DNA of 64,000 bases, taken from the NCBI GenBank assembly GCA_965208755.1, contig OZ242353.1, positions 4,974,714 through 5,038,713 of the forward strand, read 5' to 3'. The notes beneath the pieces were generated by a model. The model made no database searches, was not told the origin of the DNA, and was given only the letters and a program-made list of their open reading frames with translations. The DNA comes from Candidatus Multivorans sp. Lineage in GTDB: Bacteria > Acidobacteriota > Thermoanaerobaculia > Multivoradales > Multivoraceae. The position numbers and the translations under genes are program-made. This document shows positions 19,893 through 59,427 of this stretch, one piece after another. Each line of letters begins with the position of its first letter. Position 1 is the stretch's first letter.

Positions 19893-21179
19893 ATGGCGCC
19901 GTTCTTCCTTGCGCTCGTTGCCGTTTCGGCGATGGGGCATGCCGCCGTTTCGGCGGCGGAATGCGAGAGCGCCTTCGCCCCGACGCCGCTGAGCGTGCCG
20001 GTGACATCGGTGCCCATCGTCGTCCCTTCGACGGCGGGAGACTACTTCGTTCTCTACGTGTCGCACGGGGAGCGGACTCTCCCCGTGTCAGTGACGCGGG
20101 GAAGGGAAGGCGCCACGCCGCTTGCGTGGCCGGTGGAGGGACTGCCGCCCGGACGGTACCGCGTGGAGAAGTACCCGATCTCCGAACCGGGGGACGTGGA
20201 CGGCGACTGCATCGATGATCTCACCGATCCCAACCCGGTGAACCCGGCTGGAGAGATCGCCTTCACGGACGGACTGACCTTGCTGTCGAGTTCCGCGCAG
20301 TGGCGGGCGATCGCTTTCGACGCGCTGCGCGACGGCTGCTCGATGTGCGAGGTCCCTGGCTCCGGAACGGACTGGCTGAAGCTCTCGGTGGACCGCCGGA
20401 ATCCGGTCCGGCCCGGCGTCTACTTCATCAACGCTCCGACCCATTGGGGCCACCCCCACTTCGCGTTCGCTTTGGGTCTGCCGCTGGATCTGATCTCTCT
20501 CGAACTCGACCGGGCCACCGGACTCCCCGGCTTCGCCCCCGACTCGACAACCTACTTCTTCTGGTTTTCCAACCCCGCGGACGCGCTGGATCTTGCCGGG
20601 ATGGTGCCGCTGCTTCACAGCGCGATCGGCGCCAGCATGCCGATCATGCGGGCGGAGGCCGCCGAATCGCGGCTTGCCTACTACGTTCCCGACACGGTCT
20701 GGAACAGAAGGTACTTCGAAGCGATCAGTCCCTGGCTTCCGAGCTACGAGGAGGCCGGGATCAGGGTTCTGGTCGATGGGTCCTTCGTCGACGATGCTCC
20801 CGAGGGCGCCTGCGAGAGCGACGAGACGAGGCGCTGCCTGCGGGATTCCCGTTTCGCGGTCGAGGTGGAGTGGACGGGTCCGGGCGGGACCGCCGGCGCC
20901 GCTCGGGTGGTCCACGCGGGCACGAACGACTCGGCGCTGTTCTCGTTCTTCGACCGGGCGAACTGGGAGGTTCTGGCGAAGGTTCTGGACGGTTGTGCGG
21001 TGAACGGGAGCTTCTGGGTGTTCGCGGCTTCGACGACGGACCTGGAGTTCACGATTCGGGTGACGGACACGGCGACCGGGGTTTCCCGCGCGTACTCGAA
21101 CGAGGCGGGCGCCGCCGCTCCCGCCGTCGCCGACACCGAGGCCTTCCCGGGCGCCTGCGGGAACGGCCGGGGCCGATGA
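19893..21179 (+). CDS. Array gene A. Secreted modular protein, shortest form: signal peptide + conserved N-domain + Cys-flanked C-domain; no linker or PKD.
   Basis: Start taken at MAPFFLALVAVSAMGHA; an upstream alternative exists at 19779. N-domain motifs YFVLYV, RYRVEKY, DVDGDCIDDLTDPNPVNP, INAPTHWGHP, LVPLLHSAI. C-domain CLRDSRFAVEVEW…AFPGACGNGRGR. Its stop overlaps the next ATG (ATGA). Confidence 0.7.
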   Translation: MAPFFLALVAVSAMGHAAVSAAECESAFAPTPLSVPVTSVPIVVPSTAGDYFVLYVSHGERTLPVSVTRGREGATPLAWPVEGLPPGRYRVEKYPISEPGDVDGDCIDDLTDPNPVNPAGEIAFTDGLTLLSSSAQWRAIAFDALRDGCSMCEVPGSGTDWLKLSVDRRNPVRPGVYFINAPTHWGHPHFAFALGLPLDLISLELDRATGLPGFAPDSTTYFFWFSNPADALDLAGMVPLLHSAIGASMPIMRAEAAESRLAYYVPDTVWNRRYFEAISPWLPSYEEAGIRVLVDGSFVDDAPEGACESDETRRCLRDSRFAVEVEWTGPGGTAGAARVVHAGTNDSALFSFFDRANWEVLAKVLDGCAVNGSFWVFAASTTDLEFTIRVTDTATGVSRAYSNEAGAAAPAVADTEAFPGACGNGRGR

Positions 21180-28565: not shown

Positions 28566-31072
28566 GAGACGAACGGGCGGTTGGGTTTCGCGCCGGCGGG
28601 CTTCTTCCTTCGGCGCTGGCGGCGGCGACGGCGATGGCCTTCGCCTCCGCCGGCGTGGGCCTGCGGGCGTCGGAGTGCGAGGACGACGAAACGACTCCGC
28701 CGACGCCGACCGCCGTCGCCGTGGAGTCCGTGCCCATCACGGTCCCTTCGACGGCGGCGGAGTACTTCGTGCTCTACGTGACCCACGACCTGGGCGACGG
28801 CGATGTCCGCGAGGTTCCGGTGTCGGTGACCCGGGGGGAGGAGGGCGCGACGACGCTCGAGTGGAACCTGTCCGGGCTTCCCGCGTCGAGGTACCGGGTC
28901 GAGAAGTACCGGATCGACGATCCGGGAGACGTGGACGGCGACTGCCGCGACGACCTGACGGACCCGAATCCGGTCAACCCGGCCCGGGAGATCGAACTCG
29001 TGAACGGTCTGAATCTGCTGTCGACGTTTGAGCAGTGGGACGAGCTCTACTTCGACACCGTTCGCGATCGTTGCTCGGAGTGCTTCTTTCACGGGCCCGG
29101 AACGAGATATCTCAAGCTGTTCGGCAATCGCTCGGGCTCGCGGCCGCCGGCAATCTACTTCATCAACGCGCCGACCCACTGGGGGCACCCTGCCTTTCGG
29201 ACCAGAATGAAACTGCAGGCCGGCTGGAACCTGGAGCTGGACAGGGAAACCGGGTTGGGCGACACAGGGCCGGAGGTGGACACCTACTACTGGTGGTTCT
29301 CCTTCCCACAGTACGCGGACGAGTACGCCCATCTGGTGCCCTGGCTGCACAGCGCGATCGCCGCCAACCTGCCGATCATGCGGGCGGATGCGTCCGAATG
29401 GCGGCTTGCCTACTACATCCCCGACAAGACGTGGGATTGGTACAACCTCGACCCGATCACGTCCCGGATAGCCGGTTACGAGCAGGCGGGGGTGCCGGTT
29501 CTGCGCGATGAGGCGTGGGTCGTCGACGTTTCCCTCGAGATGGAGACCGCCATCGTGGACGAAGGCGGTACGGCGTCTCTTCTGACGCGGTTGGCGAAGC
29601 CGCTGTCTTCCTCGGTCACCGTGCCGCTGCTTGTGGCGGGGCGGGACACGTCGACCGCGGTGCCCGCGAGCGTCGAGATCGCCGCCGGAAGCACGGAGGC
29701 GTCGACAAGCTTCTCGACGGCGGTCGACGGGGACACGGAGGACGAGATCGTGACCATCGGTTTCGGCGAGCTTCCCTGGCAGGTCTCGCCCGGCAGCGCC
29801 GCCAGCGTGACCTTGACGGTCAGGGACCTGACACCGATCGGGGAAGCGACTCAGGAGGTCACCCTGTCGGTGGCGCCTTCGACGGTGGAGGAGGGTGCGG
29901 GCGCGACCGTTACCGCGAGCCTGAGCCGGGCGCGATCCACCGCGGTGACGATCCCGCTGCTCGTGAACGACGTGGACGCCGAACCGGGCGACTACACGGC
30001 GCCGTCGTTCATCGGAGTAGCGCGGGGCGCCGTGACGGGCGCGGCGGCCCTTCAGGCCGTGGATGACGGCGACCTGGACGACGAGACCCTCACCGTGTCG
30101 CTGGGCGCCGCCCTGCCCGAGGGCATGGTCGCCGGGACGCCGGACGCCGTACTCGTGACCATCCGGGACGACGATTCGGCGCCTCCTCCTCCGGAATCCG
30201 ATCCTCCTCCTCCTCCTCCTCCTCCTCCTCCTCCTCCTCCTCCGCCGCCGCCCACGCCGCCGGAATCCGATCCTCCGCCTCCTCCTCCTCCGCCCACGCC
30301 GCCGCCCTCGGGTCCGCCGCCCGCGCCGCCGGCGCCCGATCCGGCGCCTGAACCCGAGCCTGAGCCCGCGCCCGAGCCCGAGCCGGAACCCGAGCCTGAA
30401 CCCGAGCCCGAGCCGGCGCCGGCCGGTCCGCTGAAGGCGGACTTCACGGTGGACGCGGACTGCTCCTCGGCGCCGTGCCGGCTGCGGACGGGCGTTCGCG
30501 TGGTGTTCTCGGATTCGAGCGGCGGCCGCGTCGTCGGCCGGCGCTGGAGCTTCGGGGACGGGTCGACGTCCCGCGGGCTGTCGCCGGCGCACGAGTACCG
30601 TTCGCCCGGCTTCTACGAGGTGTCGTTGACGGTGAGCGACGGGACGGAGGAATCGGTGGCGGCCCGGGTCTTCCTGGTGGAGGCGGGGGAGCCCGCGGGC
30701 GCCTGCGTGGGCGGCGCGTCCGTCCGCTGTCTGCGGGATTCCCGTTTCGCGGTCGAGGTGGAGTGGACGGGTCCGGGCGGGGCCGCCGGCGCCGCTCGGG
30801 TGGTCCACGCGGGCACGAACGACTCGGCGCTGTTCTCGTTCTTCGACCGGGCGAACTGGGAGGTTCTGGCGAAGGTTCTGGACGGTTGTGCGGTGAACGG
30901 GAGCTTCTGGGTGTTCGCGGCTTCGACGACGGACCTGGAGTTCACGATTCGGGTGACGGACACGGCGACCGGGGTTTCCCGCGCGTACTCGAACGAGGCG
31001 GGCGCCGCCGCTCCCGCCGTCGCCGACACCGAGGCCTTCCCGGGCGCCTGCGGGAACGGCCGGGGCCGATGA
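28562..31072 (+). CDS. Array gene E. Long form carrying the longest Pro/(PEPA)n linker.
   Basis: Starts MRDERAVGFRAGGLLP. The linker (PPPPPPPPPPPPPPPPPTPPESDPPPPPPPPTPPPSGPPPAPPAPDPAPEPEPEPAPEPEPEPEPEPEPEPAPAGP) is followed by the PKD and C-domains. Confidence 0.75.
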   Translation: MRDERAVGFRAGGLLPSALAAATAMAFASAGVGLRASECEDDETTPPTPTAVAVESVPITVPSTAAEYFVLYVTHDLGDGDVREVPVSVTRGEEGATTLEWNLSGLPASRYRVEKYRIDDPGDVDGDCRDDLTDPNPVNPAREIELVNGLNLLSTFEQWDELYFDTVRDRCSECFFHGPGTRYLKLFGNRSGSRPPAIYFINAPTHWGHPAFRTRMKLQAGWNLELDRETGLGDTGPEVDTYYWWFSFPQYADEYAHLVPWLHSAIAANLPIMRADASEWRLAYYIPDKTWDWYNLDPITSRIAGYEQAGVPVLRDEAWVVDVSLEMETAIVDEGGTASLLTRLAKPLSSSVTVPLLVAGRDTSTAVPASVEIAAGSTEASTSFSTAVDGDTEDEIVTIGFGELPWQVSPGSAASVTLTVRDLTPIGEATQEVTLSVAPSTVEEGAGATVTASLSRARSTAVTIPLLVNDVDAEPGDYTAPSFIGVARGAVTGAAALQAVDDGDLDDETLTVSLGAALPEGMVAGTPDAVLVTIRDDDSAPPPPESDPPPPPPPPPPPPPPPPPTPPESDPPPPPPPPTPPPSGPPPAPPAPDPAPEPEPEPAPEPEPEPEPEPEPEPAPAGPLKADFTVDADCSSAPCRLRTGVRVVFSDSSGGRVVGRRWSFGDGSTSRGLSPAHEYRSPGFYEVSLTVSDGTEESVAARVFLVEAGEPAGACVGGASVRCLRDSRFAVEVEWTGPGGAAGAARVVHAGTNDSALFSFFDRANWEVLAKVLDGCAVNGSFWVFAASTTDLEFTIRVTDTATGVSRAYSNEAGAAAPAVADTEAFPGACGNGRGR

Positions 31073-33144
31073 GAGGCGAACGGGCGGCGGGGTTGCGCGC
31101 GGGCCGGCTTCTCCCTTGGGCGCTGGCGACGGCGATTGCCTTGGCCGCCGCCGCCGGCGATCTGTGGGCGTCGGAATGCGAGGACGACGGAACGACTCCG
31201 CCGACGCCGACCGCCGTCGCCGTGGAGTCCGTGCCCATCACGGTCCCTTCGACGGCGGCGGAGTACTTCGTGCTCTACGTGACCCACGACCTGGGCGACG
31301 GCGATGTCCGCGAGGTTCCGGTGTCGGTGACCCGGGGGGAGGAGGGCGCGACGACGCTCGAGTGGAACCTGTCCGGGCTTCCCGCGTCGCGATACCGGGT
31401 GGAGAAGTACGAGGTCGACGATCCGGGAGACGTGGACGGCGACTGCCGCGACGACCTGACGGACCCGAATCCGGTCAATCCGGCCCGGGAGCTCGAATTC
31501 TCGGACGGTCTGAATCTGCTGTCGACGTCCGAGCAGTGGGACGAGATCTACTTCGACACCGTTCGCGATCGTTGCGGGGCGTGCGAGTTCTTCGGGCCGG
31601 GAACGCGATACCTGAAGCTGCACGTTTCCCGCTCGGACTCGAAGCCGCCGCAGATCTACGTCATCAACTCGCGGACACACTGGGGGCATCCCTGGTTCCG
31701 CAACGCCGTGGGGCTGGAAAAGGACCTGCCGATCGAGTTGGACCGGGGCGCCGGGGTGGGCGACACCGGGTCGGAGGTGGAGACCTACTACTGGTGGTTC
31801 TCCGATGCCAAGGATGCGGTCGCCTCCGCCGGTCTGGTGCCCTGGCTGCACAGTGCGATCGCGGCCAGCCTTCCGATCATGCCGGCCGAGTCCGAGGAGT
31901 GGCGGCTCGCCTACTACATTCCGGACACCAAGTGGGATGCGCCGGCTGTCGAGGCGCTCCCGCCCTGGATTGCCGGCTACGAGGGCGCGGGGGTCCCCGT
32001 TCTGCGCGACCGCTCGTTCGCCCCCGACGCGCCCATCGTCTCGGTCTCGAGCGACCAGGAAACCGTGACGGAGGGGCAGGACGCAAGTTTCACGTTCACG
32101 GCGGATCGGTTTGCCCAGGAGGCCTTTGCGGTCGGATTCAGCGTCGTCGAGAGACCGCGGTTCGCCGGCACCCGGAGGGCAGGAGAAGTCAGGTTCGAGG
32201 CTGGCGCCGCGTCCGCCGTCCTGACGTTGCCGACCGAAGACGACGGCGTGGCCGGAAGAGAGCGTGTGGCGATCGTCCACCTCGAGACGGGGGCCGGCTA
32301 TCTGCCCGGTCCGCGGCGCTCGGCGCGGGTCACGGTGGTCGACAACGATGACGCCTCTCCTCCTCCGCCGCCGCCCTCCGATCCTCCTCCTCCTTCGCCT
32401 CCTCCTCCTTCGCCTCCTCCTCCTTCGCCTCCGCCGCCCGCGCCTCCGGCGCCCGATCCGGCGCCGGAACCCGAGCCCGAACCCGAGCCCGAGCCGGCGG
32501 GTCCGCTGAAGGCGGACTTCACGGTGGACGCGGACTGCTCCTCGGCGCCGTGCCGGCTGCGGACGGGCGTTCGCGTGGTGTTCTCGGATTCGAGCGGCGG
32601 CCGCGTCGTCGGCCGGCGCTGGAGCTTCGGGGACGGGTCGACGTCCCGCGGGCTGTCGCCGGCGCACGAGTACCGTTCGCCCGGCTTCTACGAGGTGTCG
32701 TTGACGGTGAGCGACGGGACGGAGGAATCGGTGGCGACTCGCGTCTTCCTGGTGGAGGCCGGCGAGCCCGCCGGCGCCTGCGTGGGCGGCGCGTCCGTCC
32801 GCTGCCTGCGGGATTCCCGGTTCGCGGTCGAGGTGGAGTGGACGGGTCCGGGCGGGGCCGCCGGCGCCGCCCGGGTGGTCCACGCCGGCACGAACGATTC
32901 GGCTCTGTTCTCGTTCTTCGACCGGGCGAACTGGGAGGTTCTGGCGAAGGTTCTGGACGGTTGTGCGGTGAACGGGAGCTTCTGGGTGTTCGCGGCTTCG
33001 ACGACGGACCTGGAGTTCACGATCCGGGTGACGGACACGGCGACCGGGGTTTCCCGCGCGTACTCGAACGAGGCGGGCGCCGCCGCCGCCGTCGCCGACA
33101 CGGAGGCGTTCCCGGGCGTCTGCGGGAACGGCCGGGGCCGATGA
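31069..33144 (+). CDS. Array gene F. Medium form: N-domain + one insert domain + Pro/PE linker + PKD + C-domain.
   Basis: Conserved start and junctions. The insert domain is a diverged variant (SDQETVTEGQDASFTFTADRFAQEAF…). Confidence 0.75.
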   Translation: MRGERAAGLRAGRLLPWALATAIALAAAAGDLWASECEDDGTTPPTPTAVAVESVPITVPSTAAEYFVLYVTHDLGDGDVREVPVSVTRGEEGATTLEWNLSGLPASRYRVEKYEVDDPGDVDGDCRDDLTDPNPVNPARELEFSDGLNLLSTSEQWDEIYFDTVRDRCGACEFFGPGTRYLKLHVSRSDSKPPQIYVINSRTHWGHPWFRNAVGLEKDLPIELDRGAGVGDTGSEVETYYWWFSDAKDAVASAGLVPWLHSAIAASLPIMPAESEEWRLAYYIPDTKWDAPAVEALPPWIAGYEGAGVPVLRDRSFAPDAPIVSVSSDQETVTEGQDASFTFTADRFAQEAFAVGFSVVERPRFAGTRRAGEVRFEAGAASAVLTLPTEDDGVAGRERVAIVHLETGAGYLPGPRRSARVTVVDNDDASPPPPPPSDPPPPSPPPPSPPPPSPPPPAPPAPDPAPEPEPEPEPEPAGPLKADFTVDADCSSAPCRLRTGVRVVFSDSSGGRVVGRRWSFGDGSTSRGLSPAHEYRSPGFYEVSLTVSDGTEESVATRVFLVEAGEPAGACVGGASVRCLRDSRFAVEVEWTGPGGAAGAARVVHAGTNDSALFSFFDRANWEVLAKVLDGCAVNGSFWVFAASTTDLEFTIRVTDTATGVSRAYSNEAGAAAAVADTEAFPGVCGNGRGR

Positions 33145-35231
33145 GAAACGAACGGGCGGCGGGGTTGCGCGCGGGGCGGCCTCTCCCTTGGGCGCTGGCG
33201 GCGGCGATGGCCGCCTTCGCCGGCGGCCCGTGGGCGGTGGAGTCCGACGACGACGAAACGACTCCGCCGACGCCGACCGCCGTCGCCGTGGAGTCCGTGC
33301 CCATCACGGTCCCTTCGACGGCGGCGGAGTACTTCGTGCTCTACGTGACCCACGACCTGGGCGACGGCGATGTCCGCGAGGTTCCGGTGTCGGTGACCCG
33401 GGGGGAGGAGGGCGCGACGACGCTCGAGTGGAACCTGTCCGGGCTTCCCGCGTCGCGATACCGGGTGGAGAAGTACGAGGTCGACGATCCGGGAGACGTG
33501 GACGGCGACTGCCGCGACGACCTGACGGACCCGAATCCGGTCAACCCGGCCCGGGAGCTCGAATTCTCGGACGGCCTGAATCTGCTGTCGACGTCCGAGC
33601 AGTGGGACGAGATCTACTTTGACGCCGTTCGCAGTCGTTGCGGGGCGTGCGAGTTCTTCGGGCCGGGAACGCGGTACCTGAAGCTGCACGTCGCCCGCTC
33701 GGCCTCGCGGCCCCCGGCGGCCTACTTCATCAACGCGCGGACCCACTTGGTGCACTTCTTGTTCCGCCGCGCCGTGGGGCTGGAAAAGGACCTGTCGCTC
33801 GAGCTGGACAGGGAGACCGGGTTGGCCGGGACCGGGTCGGAGGTGGACACCTACTACTGGTGGTTCTCCGATGCCAGGGATGCGGTCGAATCCGCCGGTC
33901 TGGTGCCCTGGCTGCACAGCGCGATCGCGGCCAGCCTTCCGATCATGCCGGCCGATGCGTCGGAGTGGCGGCTCGCCTACTACATCCCGGACACCAGGTG
34001 GCAGGAGCTGGCCGTCGAGGCGCTGCTGCCCCGGTTGGCCGGCTACGAGAGCGCGGGGGTTCCCGTTCTGCGGGACCGTTCGTTCGACGCCGACCTGCCG
34101 AACATCTCGGTCTCGAGCGATCGGGAGTCCGTGACGGAGGGGCGGGAGGCGACTTTCACGTTCACCGCGGATCCGCCGCCTCGGGAGGCCCTTGAAGTCC
34201 TGTTCCAGGTTGTGGAATCCAGCGGCAGCGACTTCCTGCGCCCCGGTCTCAACCAGGTCTGCGACGACTTCCCGGGCACCCTGGGCAACGCGGGCTACTG
34301 CTGGCTCAGGTTCGAGGCCGATGCCGCGTCCGCCGTCCTGACGATACCGACCGTGGACGACGACGTGGACGGATCGGACGGTGTCGGGACCGTCTCCGTC
34401 GCGAGGTCGTCCCGCTACCTGCTCGGCATGCCTCGTTCGGCGCGGGTCTCGGTGGTCGACAACGATGACGCTCCTCTTTCTCCTCTTCCTCCGCCTCCTC
34501 CTCCTCCTCCTTCGCCTCCGCCGCCCGCGCCTCCGGCGCCCGATCCGGCGCCGGAACCCGAGCCCGAACCCGAGCCCGAGCCGGCGGGTCCGCTGAAGGC
34601 GGACTTCACGGTGAAGGCGGACTGCTCCTCGGATCCGTGCCGGCTGCGGACGGGCGTTCGCGTGGTGTTCTCGGATTCGAGCGGCGGCCGCGTTGTCGGC
34701 CGGCGCTGGAACTTCGGGGACGGGTCGACGTCCCGCGGGCTGTCGCCGGCGCACGAGTACCGTTCGCCCGGCTTCTACGAGGTGTCGTTGACGGTGAGCG
34801 ACGGGACGGAGGAATCGGTGGCGGCCCGGGTCTTCCTGGTGGAGGCCGGCGAGCCCGCCGGCGCCTGCGTGGGCGGCGCGTCCACCCGCTGCCTGCAAGA
34901 TTCCCGGTTCGCGGTCGAGGTGGAGTGGACGGGTCCGGGCGGGGCCGCCGGCGCCGCTCGGGTGGTCCACGCCGGCACGGACGATTCGGCGCTGTTCTCG
35001 TTCTTCGACCGGGCGAACTGGGAGGTTCTGGCGAAGGTTCTGGACGGTTGTGCGGTGAACGGGAGCTTCTGGGTGTTCGCGGCGGCGACGACGGACCTGG
35101 AGTTCACGATCCGGGTGACGGACACGGCGACCGGGGTTTCCCGCGCGTACTCGAACGAGGCGGGCGCCGCCGCCGCCGTCGCCGACACCGAGGCCTTCCC
35201 GGGCGCCTGCGGGAACGGCCGGGGCCGATGA
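33141..35231 (+). CDS. Array gene G. Medium form.
   Basis: Starts MRNERAAGLRAGRPLPWALAAAMAAFAGGPWAVESDDDETTPPTPTAVAVESVPITV. Same domain order as B, F and I. Confidence 0.75.
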   Translation: MRNERAAGLRAGRPLPWALAAAMAAFAGGPWAVESDDDETTPPTPTAVAVESVPITVPSTAAEYFVLYVTHDLGDGDVREVPVSVTRGEEGATTLEWNLSGLPASRYRVEKYEVDDPGDVDGDCRDDLTDPNPVNPARELEFSDGLNLLSTSEQWDEIYFDAVRSRCGACEFFGPGTRYLKLHVARSASRPPAAYFINARTHLVHFLFRRAVGLEKDLSLELDRETGLAGTGSEVDTYYWWFSDARDAVESAGLVPWLHSAIAASLPIMPADASEWRLAYYIPDTRWQELAVEALLPRLAGYESAGVPVLRDRSFDADLPNISVSSDRESVTEGREATFTFTADPPPREALEVLFQVVESSGSDFLRPGLNQVCDDFPGTLGNAGYCWLRFEADAASAVLTIPTVDDDVDGSDGVGTVSVARSSRYLLGMPRSARVSVVDNDDAPLSPLPPPPPPPPSPPPPAPPAPDPAPEPEPEPEPEPAGPLKADFTVKADCSSDPCRLRTGVRVVFSDSSGGRVVGRRWNFGDGSTSRGLSPAHEYRSPGFYEVSLTVSDGTEESVAARVFLVEAGEPAGACVGGASTRCLQDSRFAVEVEWTGPGGAAGAARVVHAGTDDSALFSFFDRANWEVLAKVLDGCAVNGSFWVFAAATTDLEFTIRVTDTATGVSRAYSNEAGAAAAVADTEAFPGACGNGRGR

Positions 35232-37966
35232 GAGGCGAACGGGCGGCGGGGTTGCGCGCGGGGCGGCCTCTCCCTTGGGCGCTGGCGGCGGCGATGGCCG
35301 CCTTCGCCGGCGGCCCGTGGGCGGTGGAGTCCGACGACGACGAAACGACTCCGCCGACGCCGACCGCCGTCGCCGTGGAGTCCGTGCCCATCACGGTCTC
35401 TTCGACGGCGGCGGACTACTTCGTGCTCTACGTGAAGAACGACGTGGGCAACGGCGTTGTACGCGAGGTTCCGGTTTCGGTGACCCGGGGGGAGGAGGGC
35501 TCGACGACGCTCGAGTGGAACCTGTCCGGGCTTCCCGCGTCGAGATACCGGGTCGAGAAGTACCGGATCGACGATCCGGGAGACGTGGACGGCGACGGCC
35601 GGGACGACCTGACGGACCCGAACCCGGTGAACCCGGCCCGGGAGCTCGCGCTCGGCGACGGTCTGAATCTGCTGTCGACGTCCGAGCAGTGGAACGCGCT
35701 GTACTTCGACACCCTTCGCGACGATTGCAAACCGTGCTTCTTCCACGGGCCCGGAACGAGATATCTCAAGCTGCTCGTAGACGGCTCGGAGGCGCCGGCA
35801 ACCTACTTCATCAACGCGCCGACCCACTGGGGGCACCCCTTCTTCCGGATCAGAATGAAATTGGCGTCCGGCGTTTACCTGGAGTTGGACAGGGAAACCG
35901 GGTTGGTCGGGACCGGGTCTGAGATGGACACCTACTTCTGGTGGTTCTCCTATGCGACCGACGCGGTCGCGTACGCTCATCTGGTGCCCTGGCTGCACAG
36001 TGTGGTCGCCGCCAACCTTCCGATCATGCCGGCCGAGGCGTCGGAGTGGCGGCTTGCCTACTACATCCCGGACAGGACGTGGCCGATGCGCTACATCGAC
36101 CGGATCACGCCCCGGATAGCCGGTTACGAGCAGGCTGGGGTGCCGGTTCTGCGCGACGAGTCGTGGGTCGTCGACGTTTCCCTCGAGATGGAGACGACCA
36201 TCGTGGACGAAGGCGGTACGGCGTCCTTCGTGACGCGGCTCGCGAAGCCGCTGTCTTCCTCGGTCACCGTGCCGTTGCTTGTGGCGGGGGCGGGGACGGC
36301 GCCCGCGAGGGTCGAGATCGCCGCCGGGAGCACGGAGGCGTCGGCGAGCTTCGCGACGGCGGTCGACGGGGACACCGAGGACGAGATCGTGACCATCGGT
36401 TTCGGCGAGCTTCCCTGGCAGGTCTCGCCCGGCAGCGCCGCCAGCGTGACCCTGGCGGTCAGGGACCTGACGCCGGCGGCGACGCTGGCGGTGAAGACCG
36501 ACTCCTTGGAGGAGGGTTCGTCGACCGAGGTCGAGGTGCTTCTGACCAGGGCCTGGAGGAGTCCGCTCCTGATTCCCCTGACGACGTCCGGCTCGGCGGA
36601 GAGCGGCGATTTCACGGCCCCGGCGAGCGTGACGATCGCGGCGGGGCGGAAGTCGGGAACGGCTACGATCGCCGCGATGCGCGATCCGGACGCGGACGAC
36701 GAGACCCTGATGGTGTCGCTGGGGACGCTGCCGGAGGAGGTCGCGCGCGGTTCGCCGGCCGCGGTCGAGATCGTGATCCGCGACACGAATCCGGAGGTCA
36801 CCCTGTCGGTGGCGCCTTCGACGGTGGGGGAGGGTGAGAGCGCGACCGTCACCGCGAGCCTGAGCCGGACGCGGTCCACCGCCGTGGCGATTCCGCTGCT
36901 CGTGACCGACGTGGACGCCGAACCGGGCGACTACACGGCGCCGTCGTTCATCGGGGTAGCGCCGAACGTCGTGACGGGCGCCGCGGCCCTTCTGACCGTC
37001 GATGACGGCGACCTGGACGACGAGACCCTCACCGTGTCGCTGGGCGCCGCCCTGCCCGAGGGCATGGTCGCCGGGACGCCGGACGCCGTACTCGTGACCA
37101 TCCGGGACGACGATTCGGCGCCTCCTCCTCCGGAATCCGATCCACCGCCTCCTCCTCCTCCTACTCCTCCGCCTCCTCCGGAATCCGATCCGCCGCCGCC
37201 CGCCGGTCCGCCGCCCGGGCCGCCGGCGCCCAATCCGGCGCCGGAACCCGAGCCTGAGCCCGAGCCTGAACCTGAACCCGAGCTTGAACCCGAGCCCGAT
37301 CCCGAGCCCGAGCCGGCCGGTCCGCTGAAGGCGGACTTCACGGTGGAGGCGGACTGCTCCTCGGATCCGTGCCGGCTGCGGACGGGCGTTCGCGTGGTGT
37401 TCTCGGATTCGAGCGGCGGCCGCGTCGTCGGCCGGCGCTGGAGCTTCGGGGACGGGTCGACGTCCCGCGGGCTGTCGCCGACGCACGAGTACCGTTCGCC
37501 CGGCTTCTACGAGGTGTCGTTGACGGTGAGCGACGGGACGGAGGAATCGGTGGCGGCCCGGGTCTTCCTGGTGGAGGCGGGGGAGCCCGCGGGCGCCTGC
37601 GTGGGCGGCGCGTCCATCCGCTGCCTGCGGGATTCCCGGTTCGCGGTCGAGGTGGAGTGGACGGGTCCGGGCGGGGCCGCCGGCGCCGCTCGGGTGGTCC
37701 ACGCCGGCACGAACGATTCGGCTCTGTTCTCGTTCTTCGACCGGGCGAACTGGGAGGTTCTGGCGAAGGTTCTGGACGGTTGTGCGGTGAACGGGAGCTT
37801 CTGGGTGTTCGCGGCTTCGACGACGGACCTGGAGTTCACGATCCGGGTGACGGACACGGCGACCGGGGTTTCCCGCGCGTACTCGAACGAGGCGGGCGCC
37901 GCCGCCGCCGCCGTCGCCGACGCCGAGGCGTTTCCGGGCGCCTGCGGGAACGGCCGGGGCCGATGA
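35228..37966 (+). CDS. Array gene H. Long form with Calx-beta-like repeats.
   Basis: N-terminus near-identical to gene G. The body resembles C, D and E. Its N-domain variant lacks the central Cys pair (CKPCFFHGPG…DGDGRDD). Confidence 0.75.
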   Translation: MRGERAAGLRAGRPLPWALAAAMAAFAGGPWAVESDDDETTPPTPTAVAVESVPITVSSTAADYFVLYVKNDVGNGVVREVPVSVTRGEEGSTTLEWNLSGLPASRYRVEKYRIDDPGDVDGDGRDDLTDPNPVNPARELALGDGLNLLSTSEQWNALYFDTLRDDCKPCFFHGPGTRYLKLLVDGSEAPATYFINAPTHWGHPFFRIRMKLASGVYLELDRETGLVGTGSEMDTYFWWFSYATDAVAYAHLVPWLHSVVAANLPIMPAEASEWRLAYYIPDRTWPMRYIDRITPRIAGYEQAGVPVLRDESWVVDVSLEMETTIVDEGGTASFVTRLAKPLSSSVTVPLLVAGAGTAPARVEIAAGSTEASASFATAVDGDTEDEIVTIGFGELPWQVSPGSAASVTLAVRDLTPAATLAVKTDSLEEGSSTEVEVLLTRAWRSPLLIPLTTSGSAESGDFTAPASVTIAAGRKSGTATIAAMRDPDADDETLMVSLGTLPEEVARGSPAAVEIVIRDTNPEVTLSVAPSTVGEGESATVTASLSRTRSTAVAIPLLVTDVDAEPGDYTAPSFIGVAPNVVTGAAALLTVDDGDLDDETLTVSLGAALPEGMVAGTPDAVLVTIRDDDSAPPPPESDPPPPPPPTPPPPPESDPPPPAGPPPGPPAPNPAPEPEPEPEPEPEPELEPEPDPEPEPAGPLKADFTVEADCSSDPCRLRTGVRVVFSDSSGGRVVGRRWSFGDGSTSRGLSPTHEYRSPGFYEVSLTVSDGTEESVAARVFLVEAGEPAGACVGGASIRCLRDSRFAVEVEWTGPGGAAGAARVVHAGTNDSALFSFFDRANWEVLAKVLDGCAVNGSFWVFAASTTDLEFTIRVTDTATGVSRAYSNEAGAAAAAVADAEAFPGACGNGRGR

Positions 37967-40209
37967 GAGGCGAACGGGCGGTTGGGTTGGGCGGGGGCCG
38001 GCTTCTCCCTTGGGCGCTGGCGGTGGCGGCGATGGCGGCCGCCACCGGCAATTTGTGGGGGGGGGGGGAATGTGAGGACGACGGCTCGACTCCGCCGACG
38101 CCGACCGCCGTCGCCGTGGAGTCCGTGCCCATCACGGTCTCTTCGACGGCGGCGGAGTACTTCGTGCTCTACGTGACCCACGACCTGGGCGACGGCGATG
38201 TCCGCGAGGTTCCGGTGTCGGTGACCCGCGGGGGGGAGGGCGAGACGACGCTTGAGTGGAGCCTGTCCGGGCTTCCGGCGTCGAGATACCGGGTCGAGAA
38301 GTACCGGATCGACGATCCGGGAGACGTGGACGGCGACTGCCGCGACGACCTGACGGACCCGAATCCGGTCAATCCGGCCCGGGAGATTGAACTCGCGGAC
38401 GGCCTGAATCTGCTGTCGACGTCCGAGCAGTGGAACGAGATCTACTTCGACGCCGCTCGCGATCGTTGCGGGGGGTGCGAGTTCTTCGGGCCGGGAACGC
38501 GGTACCTCAAGGTGCACGTCGCCCGCTCGGCCTCGCGGCCGCCTGCGATCTACTTCATCAACGCGGGGACTCACGCGCTGCACATCAAGTTCCGGGGCGC
38601 CGTGGGGCTGGGAAGCGGCGTTTCGCTCGAGCTGGACAGGGAGACCGGGTTGGCCGGGACCGGCCCGGAGGTGGACACCTACTACTGGTGGTTCTCGCGT
38701 CCTCAGGAGGCGGTCGCGTCCGCCGGTCTGGTGCCCTGGCTGCACAGCGCGGTCGCCGCCAGCCTGCCGATCATGGCGGCCGATGCGTCGGAGTGGCGGC
38801 TCGCCTACTACATCCCGGACACCAGGTGGCAGGAGCCGACCGTCGAGGCGCTCCTGCCCCGGTTGGCCGGCTACGAGGGAGCGGGGGTTCCCGTTCTGCG
38901 GGACCGTTCGTTCGACGCCGACCTGCCGAACATCTCGGTTTCGAGCGATCGGGAGTCCGTGACGGAGGGGCGGGAGGCGACTTTCACGTTCACCGCGGAT
39001 CCGCCGCCTCGGGAGGCCCTTGAAGTCCTGTTCCAGGTCGTGGAATCCAGCGGCAGCGACTTCCTGCGCCCCGGTCGCAACCAGGTCTGCGACGACTTCC
39101 TGGGCGCCGAGCGCAACGCGGGCTACTGCTGGCTCAGGTTCGAGGCCGATGCCGCGTCCGCCGTCCTGACGATACCGACCGTGGACGACGACGTGGACGG
39201 ATCGGACGGTGTCGGGATCGTCTCCGTCGCGAAGTCGTCCGGCTACCTGCTCGGCATGCCTCGTTCGGCGCGGGTCTCGGTGGTCGACAACGATGACGCT
39301 CCTCTTCCTCCACCTCCTCCTCCGCCGCCGCCGGAATCCGATCCTCCTCCGCCGCCGCCACCGCCGGAATCCGATCCACCGCCTCCTCCTCCTCCTCCTC
39401 CTCCGCCTCCTCCGGAATCCGATCCGCCGCCGCCCGCCGGTCCGCCGCCCGGGCCGCCGGCGCCCAATCCGGCGCCGGAACCCGAGCCTGAGCCCGAGCC
39501 TGAACCTGAACCCGAGCCTGAACCCGAGCCCGAGCCGGCCGGTCCGCTGAAGGCGGACTTCACGGTGGAGGCGGACTGCTCCTCGGATCCGTGCCGGCTG
39601 CGGACGGGCGTTCGCGTGGTGTTCTCGGATTCGAGCGGCGGCCGCGTCGTCGGCCGGCGCTGGAGCTTCGGGGACGGGTCGACGTCCCGCGGGCTGTCGC
39701 CGGCGCACGAGTACCGTTCGCCCGGCTTCTACGAGGTGTCGTTGACGGTGAGCGACGGGACGGAGGAATCGGTGGCGACTCGCGTCTTCCTGGTGGAGGC
39801 CGGCGAGCCCGCCGGCGCCTGCGTGGGCGGCGCGTCCGTCCGCTGCCTGCGGGATTCCCGGTTCGCGGTCGAGGTGGAGTGGACGGGTCCGGGCGGGGCC
39901 GCCGGCGCCGCTCGGGTGGTCCACGCCGGCACGAACGATTCGGCTCTGTTCTCGTTCTTCGACCGGGCGAACTGGGAGGTTCTGGCGAAGGTTCTGGACG
40001 GTTGTGCGGTGAACGGGAGCTTCTGGGTGTTCGCGGCTTCGACGACGGACCTGGAGTTCACGATCCGGGTGACGGACACGGCGACCGGGGTTTCCCGCGC
40101 GTACTCGAACGAGGCGGGCGCCGCCGCCGCCGTCACCGACACGGAGGCCTTCCCGGGCGCCTGTGCCGTTCGGCGAAACCAGGCGCTCGGGCAGGGAGCA
40201 GGCCCCTGA
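37963..40209 (+). CDS. Array gene I. Medium form; last canonical member.
   Basis: Same architecture. The C-terminus ends …AFPGACAVRRNQALGQGAGP rather than GNGRGR, because no coupled gene follows. Confidence 0.75.
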   Translation: MRGERAVGLGGGRLLPWALAVAAMAAATGNLWGGGECEDDGSTPPTPTAVAVESVPITVSSTAAEYFVLYVTHDLGDGDVREVPVSVTRGGEGETTLEWSLSGLPASRYRVEKYRIDDPGDVDGDCRDDLTDPNPVNPAREIELADGLNLLSTSEQWNEIYFDAARDRCGGCEFFGPGTRYLKVHVARSASRPPAIYFINAGTHALHIKFRGAVGLGSGVSLELDRETGLAGTGPEVDTYYWWFSRPQEAVASAGLVPWLHSAVAASLPIMAADASEWRLAYYIPDTRWQEPTVEALLPRLAGYEGAGVPVLRDRSFDADLPNISVSSDRESVTEGREATFTFTADPPPREALEVLFQVVESSGSDFLRPGRNQVCDDFLGAERNAGYCWLRFEADAASAVLTIPTVDDDVDGSDGVGIVSVAKSSGYLLGMPRSARVSVVDNDDAPLPPPPPPPPPESDPPPPPPPPESDPPPPPPPPPPPPPESDPPPPAGPPPGPPAPNPAPEPEPEPEPEPEPEPEPEPEPAGPLKADFTVEADCSSDPCRLRTGVRVVFSDSSGGRVVGRRWSFGDGSTSRGLSPAHEYRSPGFYEVSLTVSDGTEESVATRVFLVEAGEPAGACVGGASVRCLRDSRFAVEVEWTGPGGAAGAARVVHAGTNDSALFSFFDRANWEVLAKVLDGCAVNGSFWVFAASTTDLEFTIRVTDTATGVSRAYSNEAGAAAAVTDTEAFPGACAVRRNQALGQGAGP

Positions 40210-40315
40210 CGGGAGCGCGATGGAGCGCGGGCAGTGTAAGATGCGGCCGGGAGAGAGCCCTCGGGCGGATGGCGCCGTGCAGATCGTTGATGACAGTTCT
40301 TTCGGCCGCCAGGAC

Positions 40316-41470
40316 ATGAGGGCCGGCGATCCCGGATGGAGAGGCGGGAGGGCCGCGGGTCTGCTGTGCGCTCTGGCGCTGGTTGTCGTTCCGGCCGATG
40401 GCCAGCGGTCCGCGATAGAGGTCTTCGGCGGCGGCGCGGTCACGGAAGGGATGCCCGCCGTGTTCACGGTGACCGCCAATCCCGCCCCGGTTTCGGACCT
40501 CGCCGTGACCGTCTTCGTCAATGACGATTTCACGAGCGACTTCGTTGCCGAGAGCGACGAGGGCATGAAGGTGCTCACGATTCGTGCCGGCGAATCGGCG
40601 GCGGTCTGGTCCGTGCCGACCGTCGACGACGCCGAGGAGGAAGCGGACGGCATCGTGGAACTGTTTCCCTGGCCGGGTGGAGGCGACTACGACCTGGGGC
40701 CGACGCACGAGGCCAGCATTGTCGTGAGGGACAACGATTCACCAGGGGGTGTGCCTCCTCCTCCTCCTCCTCCTCCTCCTCCTCCGCCCGAGCCGGAGCC
40801 CGAGCCGGAGCCCGAGCCCGAGCCGGTCGGTCCGCTGGAGGCGGACTTCGCGGTGGAGGGCGCCGACTGTTCCTCGGATCCGTGCCGGCTGCTGACGGGC
40901 GTTCGCGTGGCCTTTTCCGACTTGAGCAGCGGCGGCGTCATCGATTGGCTCTGGAGCTTCGGGGACGGGGAGACGTCCCGGAGGTCGTCGCCGGTTTACG
41001 AGTATCGTTCGCCGGGCTTCTACGAGGTGTCGTTGACGGTGAGCGACGGGACCGAGGAATCGGTGGCGACCCGCGTCTTTCTGGTGGATCCCGGCGAGCC
41101 CGAGGGCGTTTGCGCGGGCGACGCGGCCACCCGCTGTCTGCGGAACTCCCGGTTCGCGGTCGAGGTGGAGTGGAGGGGGCCGGACGGAACCGTCGGCGAC
41201 GGGCGGGTGGTCCACGCCGGCACGAACGATTCGGCGCTGTTCTCGTTCTTCGACCCGACGAACTGGGAGGTGCTGGTCAAGGTTCTGGACGGTTGCCGGG
41301 TGAACCGCGGCTTCTGGGTGTTCGCCGCGTCGACGACGGACCTGGAGTTCACGATCCGGGTGACCGATACGGTGACCGGGTTTTCTCGCGCGTACTCGAA
41401 CGAGGCGGGCGTCGCCGCCCCCGCCGTCACCGACACCGAAGCCTTCCTGAGAGCCTGTGCCAGCCGCTAG
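40316..41470 (+). CDS. Array gene J. Diverged member without the N-domain: signal peptide + Calx-beta-like domain + P/PE linker + PKD + C-domain.
   Basis: Start taken at MRAGDPGWRGGRAAGLLCALALVVVPA; the ORF is open upstream to 40163. C-domain is CLRNSRFAVEVEWRGPDG…AFLRACASR, about 80% identical to the canonical copies. Confidence 0.65.
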   Translation: MRAGDPGWRGGRAAGLLCALALVVVPADGQRSAIEVFGGGAVTEGMPAVFTVTANPAPVSDLAVTVFVNDDFTSDFVAESDEGMKVLTIRAGESAAVWSVPTVDDAEEEADGIVELFPWPGGGDYDLGPTHEASIVVRDNDSPGGVPPPPPPPPPPPPEPEPEPEPEPEPVGPLEADFAVEGADCSSDPCRLLTGVRVAFSDLSSGGVIDWLWSFGDGETSRRSSPVYEYRSPGFYEVSLTVSDGTEESVATRVFLVDPGEPEGVCAGDAATRCLRNSRFAVEVEWRGPDGTVGDGRVVHAGTNDSALFSFFDPTNWEVLVKVLDGCRVNRGFWVFAASTTDLEFTIRVTDTVTGFSRAYSNEAGVAAPAVTDTEAFLRACASR

Positions 41471-44144
41471 GACGCGTCGACCGAGCTTGAGCGCGGCCCG
41501 CGGCCGCGGCCTTCTGCTGCTTGCGGCGGGCCTTGCGGCCGCGCCGGCCGTCGGCGAGCCCGAGGCCTGTCCGACGCCGGGCGGCGCGCCGGCGCCCGAG
41601 GCGGTCCCGGTCACGGCGACGCCTATCCGGGTCGCTTCGGCGCCGACGGACTACTTCGTCCTCTACGCCGGCCACGAGGTCTCGGGCGAAGAGCGCGAGG
41701 TTCCGGTCGCGGTCGTCCGCGGGCAGGCCGGCACGACGACGCTTGGAGAGAACGTCGCCGCGCTGCCGGTCTCGCGCTATCGTGTGGAGAAGTACCGGGT
41801 TGGCGATCCGGCGGACGTGGATGGCGACTGCATCGACGATCTCGCCGACTCCAACCCGGTCAACGCCGCGCCCCCGATCGACCCGGTCGACGGCGCCGTG
41901 CTGCTCGAGGACGCCGCCAGCTTCGAGGCCCTGGCCTTCGATCACCCCCAGACCGGCAACTCGTACCTCAAGCTGCTGGTGTTCGACTGGGAAACCGATC
42001 GCCCCGGCGTCTACTTTCAGAACGCGAAGACCCATCCCGGCCACTTCACGTTCGCGGCGAAGATAGGGCGATCGCTGAACGAGATCATCGCCTTCGAACT
42101 GGACTACGACCCGAATCTCGTCGCCCCGGACGGAACCCGCGGCGTCTACTACTACTACTGGTCCCTTCTTCAGGACGCGCGGTTCGCCGATCTCGTTCCC
42201 TGGTTCCACACCGTGCTCGCGGCCAGCATGCCGTTGATCGACGACAACCTGGCCTTCTACGTTCCGAACTCGCTGCTTCCGCACGTGCAGCCCTGGCTGT
42301 CGGCCTGGAGCGCTTCCCGAGTGCGGCTTCTGTTCGAGGACGACCTGTCAGGCCCCGACGCCGACTTCGTCGCGCTGAATCCGGGCGTTGGGCTGGGCCT
42401 GCTGCGCGCGCTGGAACCGGACGAACGGCCCCATCCTCGCGATATCGGGCTCTACGAGACGCTGCCCAACGAGCTGCCGCGGCTGGCTGGCATCATCAGC
42501 GCGACGCCGCAGACGCCCTTGTCCCATGTCAATCTCAGGGCCATTCAGAGCGGCATTCCCAATGCCTACGTTCGCGGCGCGCTGGAGGACCCGGACATCG
42601 ACTCGCTGCTCGACAGCTACGTCCGCTACACGGTTACCGCGGACGGCTGGTCGCTGCGCGAGGCGACGGTCGAAGAGGTGCTCGACCACTACGCCGACTC
42701 CCGTCCGCCGGCGCCGCAAACGCCCGAAAGGGATCTGTCGGTTCGGGAGATCGCGCCACTCCGCCGCGTGTCCTTCGACGACTGGGATGCGTTCGGCGTC
42801 AAGGCCGCGAACGTCGCGGAACTGGGCCGGCTCGGCTTTCCGCCCGGGACGGTCCCCGAGGGGTTCGCCATTCCCTTCGCGTTCTACGACGAGTTCATGA
42901 AGGCGAACGGCCTGTACGACGAGGTCCGGGAGATGTTGGCGGAACCCGGATTCAGCGGCGACTTCGATCTCCAGGAGAAGCGCCTGAAGGACCTCCGTTC
43001 GAGAATCCGGAAAGCCGAGACGGCGGAGTGGATGATCGAGGCGCTGCGGGAGATGCACGCTTCCTGGCCGGACAGCGACCAGTCTCTGCGCTATCGGTCG
43101 AGTACGAACAACGAGGACCTTCCCGGCTTCAATGGCGCCGGGCTCTACGATTCCTACACGCAGCACCCGGAGGAGACGGTCGAAGACGGGATCGACAAAT
43201 CGCTCAAGCAGGTGTTCTCGAGTCTCTGGAACTTCCGCGCGTTCACGGAGCGCGAGTTCTTCCGCATCGATCATCTGGAGGCGGCGATGGGGGTGCTGGT
43301 CCACCCCAACTTCGAGGACGAACGGGCGAACGGGGTGGCCGTCAGTTTCGATCCATTCTTCGGGCGGCCCACTCACTACTACGTGAACACGCAGCTCGGA
43401 GAGGATCTCGTCACGAATCCGGAAGCGCGTTCGGTGCCCGAGGAACTTCTCCTGTCGAAGACGGGAACGGGCGACGATCTCTTCGTCGTCCTGGCCCTCT
43501 CCAACCTGGCGCCGCCCGGGGAGCTTCTGATGAGCGAGAGCCAGCTCGATCAGTTGCGCCGGCACCTCTCGACGATTCACGACCACTTCCAAAGTCTCTA
43601 CGGTCCTGCTCCAGGCGAGCGCTTCGCCATGGAGATCGAATTCAAGATCACGAAGGACGACGTTCTCTCGATCAAGCAGGCGCGTCCCTGGGTCTTCGGG
43701 ACCGGGGTTGACGGCGAGCCGCCGCCGCCGGACGGCGCCTGCGTGGCCGACGACGTGACGCTCTGTCTCCTGAACTCCCGTTTCGCGGTCACGGTGGAAT
43801 GGTCGAACCCGGAAGGCCGGCAGGGGCCGGGCTTTGCCGTTCATGAAGGAACCGGCGATTCCGGCCTGTTCCGGTTCTTCGACTCCGAGAACTGGGAAGT
43901 GCTGATCAAGGTGCTCGACGGCTGCGAGGCGAACGGACGAGCGTGGGTGTTCGCGGCATCGACGACGGATCTCGGCCTCGTGATTCGCGTCGAGGACACG
44001 GCGCCGGGTTCGACGGATCCTCCCCGGGAGTACGCGAGCCGGCCGGGAACCGCGGCGCCGGCGATCACGGACACCGCCGCTTTCCGGGATGTTTGCCGTG
44101 GGCGCGACGAGCTCGGACAGGTCGTCGCCGCCGCCGGACACTGA
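41457..44144 (+). CDS. Array gene K. Chimeric secreted protein: family N-domain (diverged) + PEP-utilizer mobile-domain-like segment + PPDK_N-like (PEP/pyruvate-binding, ATP-grasp) domain + family C-domain (diverged).
   Basis: N-domain motifs retained (YFVLYAGHEV, RYRVEKYRVGDPADVDGDCIDDLADSNPVN, YLKLLVFDW, LVPWFHTVLAASMPL). LPRLAGIISATPQTPLSHVNLRAIQSGIPNAYVRGA resembles the PEP-utilizers swivel domain. LRYRSSTNNEDLPGFNGAGLYDSY matches the PPDK_N VRSSATAEDLP motif. C-terminus is CLLNSRFAVTVEWSNPEG…WEVLIKVLDGC…AFRDVC. Confidence 0.7.
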   Translation: MPAARTRRPSLSAARGRGLLLLAAGLAAAPAVGEPEACPTPGGAPAPEAVPVTATPIRVASAPTDYFVLYAGHEVSGEEREVPVAVVRGQAGTTTLGENVAALPVSRYRVEKYRVGDPADVDGDCIDDLADSNPVNAAPPIDPVDGAVLLEDAASFEALAFDHPQTGNSYLKLLVFDWETDRPGVYFQNAKTHPGHFTFAAKIGRSLNEIIAFELDYDPNLVAPDGTRGVYYYYWSLLQDARFADLVPWFHTVLAASMPLIDDNLAFYVPNSLLPHVQPWLSAWSASRVRLLFEDDLSGPDADFVALNPGVGLGLLRALEPDERPHPRDIGLYETLPNELPRLAGIISATPQTPLSHVNLRAIQSGIPNAYVRGALEDPDIDSLLDSYVRYTVTADGWSLREATVEEVLDHYADSRPPAPQTPERDLSVREIAPLRRVSFDDWDAFGVKAANVAELGRLGFPPGTVPEGFAIPFAFYDEFMKANGLYDEVREMLAEPGFSGDFDLQEKRLKDLRSRIRKAETAEWMIEALREMHASWPDSDQSLRYRSSTNNEDLPGFNGAGLYDSYTQHPEETVEDGIDKSLKQVFSSLWNFRAFTEREFFRIDHLEAAMGVLVHPNFEDERANGVAVSFDPFFGRPTHYYVNTQLGEDLVTNPEARSVPEELLLSKTGTGDDLFVVLALSNLAPPGELLMSESQLDQLRRHLSTIHDHFQSLYGPAPGERFAMEIEFKITKDDVLSIKQARPWVFGTGVDGEPPPPDGACVADDVTLCLLNSRFAVTVEWSNPEGRQGPGFAVHEGTGDSGLFRFFDSENWEVLIKVLDGCEANGRAWVFAASTTDLGLVIRVEDTAPGSTDPPREYASRPGTAAPAITDTAAFRDVCRGRDELGQVVAAAGH

Positions 44145-47220: not shown

Positions 47221-47226
47221 CCCCGC

Positions 47227-50193: not shown

Positions 50194-50206
50194 AGGCAAA
50201 CGGCCG

Positions 50207-51685: not shown

Positions 51686-51722
51686 CGTTCTGCTCCTTCG
51701 ACTCCTAGTCGAGGCGGGTCTC

Positions 51723-54119: not shown

Positions 54120-54158
54120 GGTGTGGCGATCCTATCGCGGCGTTAGACTTCCGGCCTC

Positions 54159-58672: not shown

Positions 58673-58678
58673 CCGTGG

Positions 58679-59350: not shown

Positions 59351-59427
59351 ATGGAAAACCATACCTGGCCTGTCCCGGTGGCGTCAATGCGTTCCCCATC
59401 GAATGGCCGCGCGGGCCGGGACGGAAC

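Follow-up and report, generated by a model that had tools for sequence, protein, structure and literature searches.

A 64,000-nucleotide stretch of contig OZ242353.1 from the acidobacterium Candidatus Multivorans sp. was analyzed, hereafter called the window. Our subject is gene K, an open reading frame for a protein of 895 amino acids (aa) at 41457-44144 on the forward strand. Gene K probably belongs, as a full member, to a large and undescribed family of phosphotransferases of the dikinase type that are exported. By analogy with known enzymes its product is most likely an extracytoplasmic 'X, water dikinase'. An earlier note on this DNA, which was made from the letters alone, had described K as the terminal member of a gene array and as a secreted chimera. 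In this chimera a segment resembling the swivel domain of phosphoenolpyruvate (PEP) utilizers and a PPDK_N domain were said to have replaced the middle of a local scaffold protein. The open reading frame and the two peptides quoted at the time are present as described, AGIISATPQTPLSHVNLRAIQSGIPNAYVRGA at aa 344-375 and RYRSSTNNEDLPGFNGAGLYDSY at aa 545-567. The domain claims hold. The chimera claim does not, as set out below.

A PPDK_N-type ATP-grasp domain in gene K is firmly supported, and the earlier assignment is confirmed by three routes. The Pfam model PF01326 matches aa 446-744 (E 3.1e-26; 92.9 bits at a cut-off of 27) and covers profile positions 4-308 of 328. With hhalign, a profile of the family aligns K 436-749 with residues 14-342 of the E. 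coli PEP synthase PpsA (E 2.5e-9), and MEIEFKI...IKQARP is paired with MDIEWAK...IVQARP. The full-length AlphaFold model (pLDDT 82, pTM 0.70) retrieves with Foldseek the ATP domain of rifampin phosphotransferase (RPH; 5hv6, E 1.3e-13, target-normalised TM 0.76), followed by PEP synthase, HpeI (9goj) and pyruvate, phosphate dikinase (PPDK). Further, a sequence search of the PDB matches PEP synthases to aa 431-652, and the NCBIfam models for PEP synthase, rifampin phosphotransferase and RedH hit the same PPDK_N stretch far under their cut-offs.

The conservation of individual residues is pronounced. Every one of the 56 aligned relatives has K449, R547, S566, E726, E728 and Q741, and 55 of them have R743. 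These residues align with the PEP synthase motifs GGK, RSS..ED, AGQ..T and DIEW...QARP, with S566 as a Ser replacing Thr. By alignment, the ATP/Mg residues of K correspond to the class of Lys22, Arg117, Thr136 and Glu297 in RPH, for which a role in positioning the ATP phosphates and Mg is known from mutagenesis or structure (PMC4844700). The earlier note had named failing domain searches or absent catalytic residues as grounds against its own reading. Neither was found: the catalytic His, to which we turn now, and the nucleotide-binding residues are present in K and invariant in its relatives.

The region preceding the ATP-grasp domain (aa ~299-420) is supported as a phosphohistidine swivel domain, at the level of the predicted fold only. 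Upstream of aa 431, searches for a swivel with Pfam (E <= 1; K and 11 relatives) and NCBIfam remained without a hit, as did phmmer and a 56-sequence profile run against the PDB. Using hhalign against a profile of five E. coli PEP-utilizer domains the match was marginal (P 0.039). Its register is the expected one, i.e., LPRLAGIISATPQTPLSHVNLRAIQSGIPN lies on the enzyme I segment and His357 on His189. A 15-column match to the single swivel sequence of E. coli PpsA was judged spurious. An AlphaFold model of aa 140-435, comprising the mid domain and the swivel (pLDDT 86), was also submitted to Foldseek. The best PDB match was RPH 5hv2 (111 columns, root-mean-square deviation 3.4 A, E 1.1e-3, prob 1.00), followed by the UPF0107 protein AF_0055 (E 7.6e-3) and then by MccF chains. 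We take these matches to share the swivelling beta/beta/alpha fold of the SCOP classification. The aligned residues of 5hv2, which the tool does not report, are assumed to be those of its C-terminal swivel because the query held only the mid and swivel domains. In the model His357 heads a helix (357-364), and it is invariant in 56 of 56 relatives. The earlier swivel assignment is upheld by the fold and the histidine, with no match to the Pfam PEP-utilizers model.

Two divergent cluster representatives are instructive in this respect. In P0197 and P0254 the swivel His is replaced by Met or Pro, and the RSSxxED pattern is matched by neither one. This suggests that the swivel His and the ATP-grasp site are coupled. 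It further suggests that pseudoenzyme branches exist in the family. Gene K does not belong to them.

The mid domain is located ahead of the swivel. K172 is kept in 55 of 56 relatives, and Y186, N189 and H196 in all of them; all four are also retained in genes A-H of the array upstream of K. The mid domain is collinear with the N-terminus of a cytoplasmic homologue from Streptomyces. We propose, by analogy, that it serves as the acceptor-binding and second phosphotransfer site. It follows an N-terminal beta-sandwich and an acidic loop, DPADVDGDCIDDLAD, which looks like a putative calcium-binding loop. The sole conserved Cys pair of K is formed by Cys38 (41568-41570) and Cys125, each of which is found in 54 of 56 sequences.

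The ~710-aa core consisting of beta-sandwich, mid domain, swivel and ATP-grasp domain is conserved in more than 1,500 proteins. When 8,000 candidates from a search with K were scored, at least 1,576 proteins had E <= 0.001. Among the 120 best relatives, most are 53-62% identical over ~80% of K (aa ~38-747), and the closest ones 64-100%. The C-terminal tails of the relatives vary widely (fn3, PKD, cadherin, TIG). An exhaustive search with aa 38-441 alone resulted in 336 cluster representatives (50% identity) at E <= 1e-30, and at times the K-type core lies within larger proteins, the longest of 3,769 aa. In data with one genome per species, relatives of K are encoded at 553 loci. The best 79 of these belong to Dehalococcoidia, Acidobacteriota (Thermoanaerobaculia, Terriglobia, Vicinamibacterales), Acidimicrobiia, Latescibacterota, Binatia and Thermodesulfobacteriota. 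The closest locus, L001, shows 70% identity; the remaining 78 show 49-61% over ~710 aa and extend over six phyla. Several genomes possess two or three copies. No description of such a family was found in the searchable literature on PF01326/PPDK_N, dikinases and sponge symbionts. The exported dikinase appears to be general, not local to this window.

The product of gene K is apparently exported. Four features speak for this: the leaders, a core devoid of Cys, the conserved Cys pair and tails of extracellular type. The signal-like leader pointed out earlier fits a general secretory (Sec) signal on hand inspection. In a crude hydrophobicity test K is positive (best 12-residue hydropathy 2.27), as are 106 of 145 relatives with an N-terminal core; 87 others carry further domains ahead of it. 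The start codon is either GTG 41457, which overlaps the end of the preceding gene J by 14 nucleotides, or TTG 41487, which is used in an identical database copy of 885 aa (P0001). The hydrophobic leader is preserved from either start. In 51 of 56 family members the 610-aa catalytic core (aa 140-750, 41874-43706) contains not a single Cys, whereas four were counted from the translation in the core of the cytoplasmic Streptomyces homologue. The fn3, PKD, cadherin and TIG tails of the relatives are extracellular-type domains. The leaders of K and of many Terriglobia relatives (P0020-P0141) run RRPS(T/L)(F)SAA...G.GR.LL.LLAA, which is twin-arginine-like with no true fit. Twin-arginine translocation (Tat) was rejected as a general explanation: K has TRRPSLS, but a loose Tat pattern occurs in only 17 of 145 leaders.

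From the homology with PEP synthase, PPDK, RPH, phenylphosphate synthase and glucan, water dikinase (GWD) one can sketch how K would operate. MgATP would bind to the ATP-grasp domain. His357 would attack the beta-phosphate of ATP and take over the beta-gamma pyrophosphate, and AMP would be released. Water would then remove the gamma-phosphate from the pyrophosphoryl-His357, and the swivel domain would carry the phosphorylated His357 to the adjacent mid domain, in whose site the phosphate would be passed to a hydroxyl-bearing acceptor. The net reaction would be X + ATP + H2O -> X-P + AMP + Pi. The site of action would be outside the cytoplasm, the enzyme being secreted or held on the cell surface, and the acceptor would belong to the surroundings, plausibly to host or matrix material.

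Judged by domains and residues K appears to belong to the superfamily of His-swivel/ATP-grasp dikinases, which comprises PEP synthase, PPDK, RPH, GWD and phenylphosphate synthase. When examined as a PEP synthase, RPH or GWD proper, it falls outside each of them. PEP synthase and PPDK share with K a homologous ATP-grasp domain and the His-swivel principle. However, the order is reversed in K, the His domain preceding the ATP-grasp domain as the earlier note had correctly seen, and K has no PEP/pyruvate TIM barrel and no PEP-utilizers_C match. With the PEP synthase models K scores 74 vs 598 (NF005057) and 70.8 vs 739.75 (TIGR01418). RPH-Lm (PDB 5FBS, 5HV1-5HV6) is the best structural match for both the ATP-grasp and the swivel domain of K, and it has a comparable three-part design of ATP-grasp, swivel His and a separate acceptor domain (PMC4844700). 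Yet RPH is cytoplasmic, and its order is ATP-grasp, rifampin-binding domain and C-terminal swivel. K has nothing which resembles a rifampin-binding domain, and its NF041857 score is 43.8 at a cut-off of 999.

In the two-protein aryl kinases the first gene codes for the protein that carries the His and binds the acceptor, and the second for the PPDK_N protein, reminiscent of the order in K (bioRxiv 10.1101/2022.04.28.489975). HpeI, one of the structural matches to K, is from this group. These enzymes use MgATP to form a pyrophosphoryl-His, the gamma-phosphate is hydrolysed, and the beta-phosphate is transferred to a hydroxyl (bioRxiv 10.1101/2022.04.28.489975). RPH follows the same mechanism with a different domain order (PMC4844700). 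Unlike K, the aryl kinases consist of two cytoplasmic polypeptides and use small aromatic substrates.

In layout K matches the plant and algal GWD (alpha-glucan, water dikinase; EC 2.7.9.4), with which phosphoglucan, water dikinase is grouped. The K motif LSHV.[LV]RA presumably resembles the GWD His motif, in agreement with the H992/C1003/C1007 numbering of GWD1. Potato GWD1 is composed of a central domain (483-926), a His domain (931-1050) on a very short linker, and an ATP-binding domain (1069-1387), i.e., the order of mid domain (140-298), swivel (299-420) and ATP-grasp (436-749) in K (PMC13553574). The chemistry to be expected would also be alike, i.e., ATP -> AMP + Pi + phospho-acceptor via a phosphohistidine. 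The acceptor sides are different. In K a ~70-aa sandwich and a ~160-aa alpha/beta domain are positioned where GWD1 has an all-helical central domain of ~440 aa with 20 helices. A CBM45 or CBM20 was not detected in K (Pfam, no match N-terminal of aa 446; this is weaker for CBM45, for which the existence of a Pfam model is uncertain). Finally, K is bacterial and apparently exported, whereas GWD is plastidial.

The nearest relatives in cultured bacteria are the Streptomyces proteins WP_142270066.1 and WP_331760287.1, annotated as 'PEP/pyruvate-binding domain-containing protein'. Further relatives of this group are present in Amycolatopsis, Bdellovibrionota and cyanobacteria. A tblastn search of a plasmid collection found no close relative of K, only distant Streptomyces homologues. 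The succession of mid domain, swivel and ATP-grasp is collinear with K 141-748 (29% identity, BLASTP E 4e-29; hhalign E 1.2e-26), and the PLSH motif is also present. In contrast to K, the Streptomyces proteins are cytoplasmic, have Cys in the core, and lack a leader, beta-sandwich, acidic loop and C-terminal tails. Because the mid-His-ATP chain is also found in these cytoplasmic proteins, the catalytic unit would be older than the exported form. On Streptomyces linear plasmids (L086 6145-10972; L087 5148-9828) the homologue is part of a conserved cassette with a divergent PAS/HTH regulator, an ATP-grasp ligase-like gene and an MFS transporter gene.

K is the last of ten co-directional genes, and its relation to this array needs to be considered. 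Array genes A-H have the K-type N-module, i.e., sandwich and mid domain, followed by Calx-like repeats, a Pro-rich linker, a PKD domain and the C-terminal C-domain; swivel and ATP-grasp domains are absent. They align with K up to aa ~295 and diverge at the start of the swivel. The alignments confirm the earlier claim that K and the array share an N-domain (aa ~38-295) and a C-domain (aa ~761-886). The N-terminal beta-sandwich of K is 52-61% identical to that of A-H (three array genes compared). The C-domain is 56-63% identical to those of A-J and 53-83% to those of orthologous dikinases from related Acidobacteriota. Beyond array and orthologues the four-Cys C-domain was found only in Acidobacteriota of the Holophagales/Thermoanaerobaculia type (P0282-P0352), where it often ends PKD + C-domain proteins of ~200 aa. 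Its position is always the extreme C-terminus, and no Pfam or NCBIfam model matches it. It may be a lineage-specific sorting or anchoring domain.

The N-module of K has 69% identity to orthologues. Identity falls to 48-52% with distant family members and to only 41% with array genes A-H. K thus has the features of the local array family, the shared N-module and the shared C-domain, yet is nearer to the dikinase family. The same layout is seen in one Candidatus Multivorans genome, in which two genes with N-module and C-domain lie directly upstream of the K orthologue. Because of these identities and the distribution, in an unrooted comparison, genes A-H look like offshoots of the ligand-binding half of a K-type gene in which the catalytic domains are absent. 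Since the same N-module is kept without catalytic domains, A-H may bind the ligand of K without modifying it. This corrects the picture of the locus: the tandem array is best read as an expanded ligand-binding half of a dikinase, not as a scaffold which acquired an enzyme.

Some details of the array are added. The start ATGs of A-H (21176, 23356, 26109, 28562, 31069, 33141, 35228, 37963) overlap the preceding stop by 4 nucleotides (ATGA). The much longer open reading frames listed for 21176-40209 continue upstream in frame through the end of the preceding gene. The middle parts of A-H differ in how many Calx-like repeats they have and in how long their Pro-rich and PEPE linkers are. Gene J (40163-41470) is short and lacks the K-type N-module; it consists of a leader of its own, a single Calx-like unit, a Pro/PE linker, PKD and C-domain. 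The coordinates of all features are collected in Table 1.

Table 1. Gene K, its domains and the upstream array (window positions).
Feature	Residues (aa)	Position	Strand	Remarks
Gene K	895 aa	41457..44144	+	GTG start 41457
Signal-like leader	1-33	41457..41555	+	Arg-rich n-region, hydrophobic GLLLLAAGLAAA, A-V-G preceding EPE
N-terminal beta-sandwich	~45-115	41589..41801	+	AlphaFold strands 48-114, pLDDT ~90
Acidic loop DPADVDGDCIDDLAD, putative calcium-binding	117-131	41805..41849	+	contains Cys125; D122, D124, D127, D128 invariant
Mid domain, alpha/beta	140-298	41874..42350	+	well predicted; K172, Y186, N189, H196
Phosphohistidine swivel domain (fold-level match)	~299-420	42351..42716	+	His357, codon 42525-42527
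ATP-grasp nucleotide-binding domain (PPDK_N)	436-749	42762..43703	+	K449, R547, S566, E726, E728, Q741, R743
C-terminal beta-sandwich (C-domain)	~761-886	43737..44114	+	four Cys; AlphaFold, alignments
Co-directional array A-H and J		21176..41470	+	upstream of gene K

The downstream neighbor of K is convergent, and no terminator-like site was found 3' of K. On the reverse strand, 44188-50307 encodes two adjacent paralogues of ~1,000 aa with a Big_7 immunoglobulin domain and a C-terminal VWA domain. At 50207-63919, on the same strand, lies a pair of DUF1501 and PSCyt1/PSCyt2/PSD1 genes, followed by a TPR protein, an FG-GAP/ASPIC protein and a barrel resembling a TonB-dependent receptor.

Several observations weigh against an extracytoplasmic dikinase. 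The swivel is assigned from a predicted structure and a modest Foldseek E-value (1.1e-3), the evidence from sequence alone being marginal. For K no acceptor can be named; the mid domain has no significant PDB neighbor by Foldseek and no Pfam family (K and 11 relatives), and it resembles no known acceptor domain. The signal-peptide calls are heuristic, i.e., based on hand inspection and crude hydrophobicity. ATP is normally not available outside the cytoplasm, which leaves an exported ATP-dependent enzyme without an obvious donor. Further, all-against-all BLAST clustering of 79 loci showed no conserved neighbor gene which might hint at a pathway; the only synteny is at the level of lineages, in that ~10 Dehalococcoidia loci have a two-component system and 6 a serine recombinase.

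The donor problem would be solved if K were an effector which phosphorylates a target inside another cell, be it the host cytosol or phagosome or a competing microbe, as ATP is available there. One relative has as neighbors an LRR+fn3 protein, another copy of the family and genes for conjugative transfer, and proteins with fn3, LRR, cadherin and Calx-beta domains are enriched in sponge symbionts (PMC11706023). Nevertheless, in the 79 loci no secretion-system, immunity or chaperone gene is conserved beside the family, and the leader resembles a general Sec signal, Tat-like leaders being in the minority. Polymorphic toxins typically carry the toxin domain at the C-terminus; in the K family the catalytic unit is usually N-terminal with adhesin-like tails, and no mechanism of entry is evident. 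We consider an effector unlikely, and the toxin- or effector-like cargo suggested by the earlier note found no support. A different answer to the donor problem is an extracellular consumer of ATP with water as the main acceptor (ATP -> AMP + 2 Pi), which would lower or reshape ATP around the symbiont or scavenge phosphate. Animal tissue would be a plausible source of extracellular ATP. GWD1, truncated as well as full-length, uses ATP without glucan (PMC13553574), and RPH variants retain ATP pyrophosphatase activity (PMC4844700). This is quite improbable, as the invariant or near-invariant mid-domain residues, which are kept in the non-catalytic array paralogues, argue for a specific ligand and not for water; in addition, simpler nucleotidases exist for the removal of ATP.

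Two further possibilities concern the nature of the protein itself. K could have lost its catalytic activity and serve as a binding or adhesin protein, or it could be an ordinary PEP-synthase-like enzyme of the cytoplasm which seems to have a leader only because of the start codon chosen. A few family members indeed have neither the His nor the ATP motifs, and the start of K is ambiguous. However, K has kept every catalytic residue, a hydrophobic leader results from both starts, the Cys-free core, the Cys pair and the tails point to export, and the missing TIM barrel and the low PEP synthase score speak against such an enzyme. We regard both variants as very improbable. Least credible of all is a recent chimera in which toxin-like enzymatic cargo took the place of the middle of the array scaffold, as the earlier note had it. 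This notion is understandable because K ends a co-directional array and its N- and C-terminal modules are common to the nine upstream genes. Yet the chain of N-module, swivel and ATP-grasp is present in more than 1,500 proteins of six phyla and at 553 genome loci, the N-module of K is nearer to this family (48-69%) than to the array (41%), and orthologues with the same C-domain exist in related genomes. Hence, the extracytoplasmic dikinase is preferred.

Where, then, does the family live? The phyla in which it occurs constitute the typical set of high-microbial-abundance sponges. 'Bacterium OM1 bin76' presumably is a bin from Aplysina aerophoba. Three family loci stem from 'SB06xx' bins, and one host genus is named Poriferisodalis. 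The symbionts in the SB0661 bins come from the sponge Ircinia ramosa (PMC11706023). From these data a sponge-symbiont family is a well-motivated inference and no more. In the Terriglobia locus L081 (1-16143) two family genes flank an LRR+fn3 protein, followed by genes for ArdC, TrbC, VirB3 and VirB4. Here an integrative conjugative element may carry the family gene along. Because of this conjugative-gene context and the conservation across phyla a horizontal spread of the K family is compatible with the data, not proven.

The known dikinases, i.e., PEP synthase, PPDK, the antibiotic and phenol kinases and the starch dikinases, are cytoplasmic or plastidial. The earlier remark that an exported ATP-grasp/phosphohistidine enzyme is unusual was well taken. 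It immediately raises the questions from where the phosphoryl donor is derived and what is phosphorylated outside the cell. Surveys based on domains would miss the K family because they list only 'PPDK_N' or 'fn3'. The family is large, strongly conserved in six phyla, multi-copy in some genomes and partly sponge-associated, and is a good candidate for a symbiosis factor. One may go a step further and speculate, tentatively and with considerable doubt, that these are truly extracellular dikinases of sponge symbionts, spread horizontally through at least six phyla, which phosphorylate a host or matrix polymer or consume extracellular ATP of the host, and that the array paralogues bind the same ligand. 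If true, the K family would make up a new class of enzymes for the interaction between host and symbiont, and would be among the rare bacterial ATP-grasp enzymes which act extracellularly.

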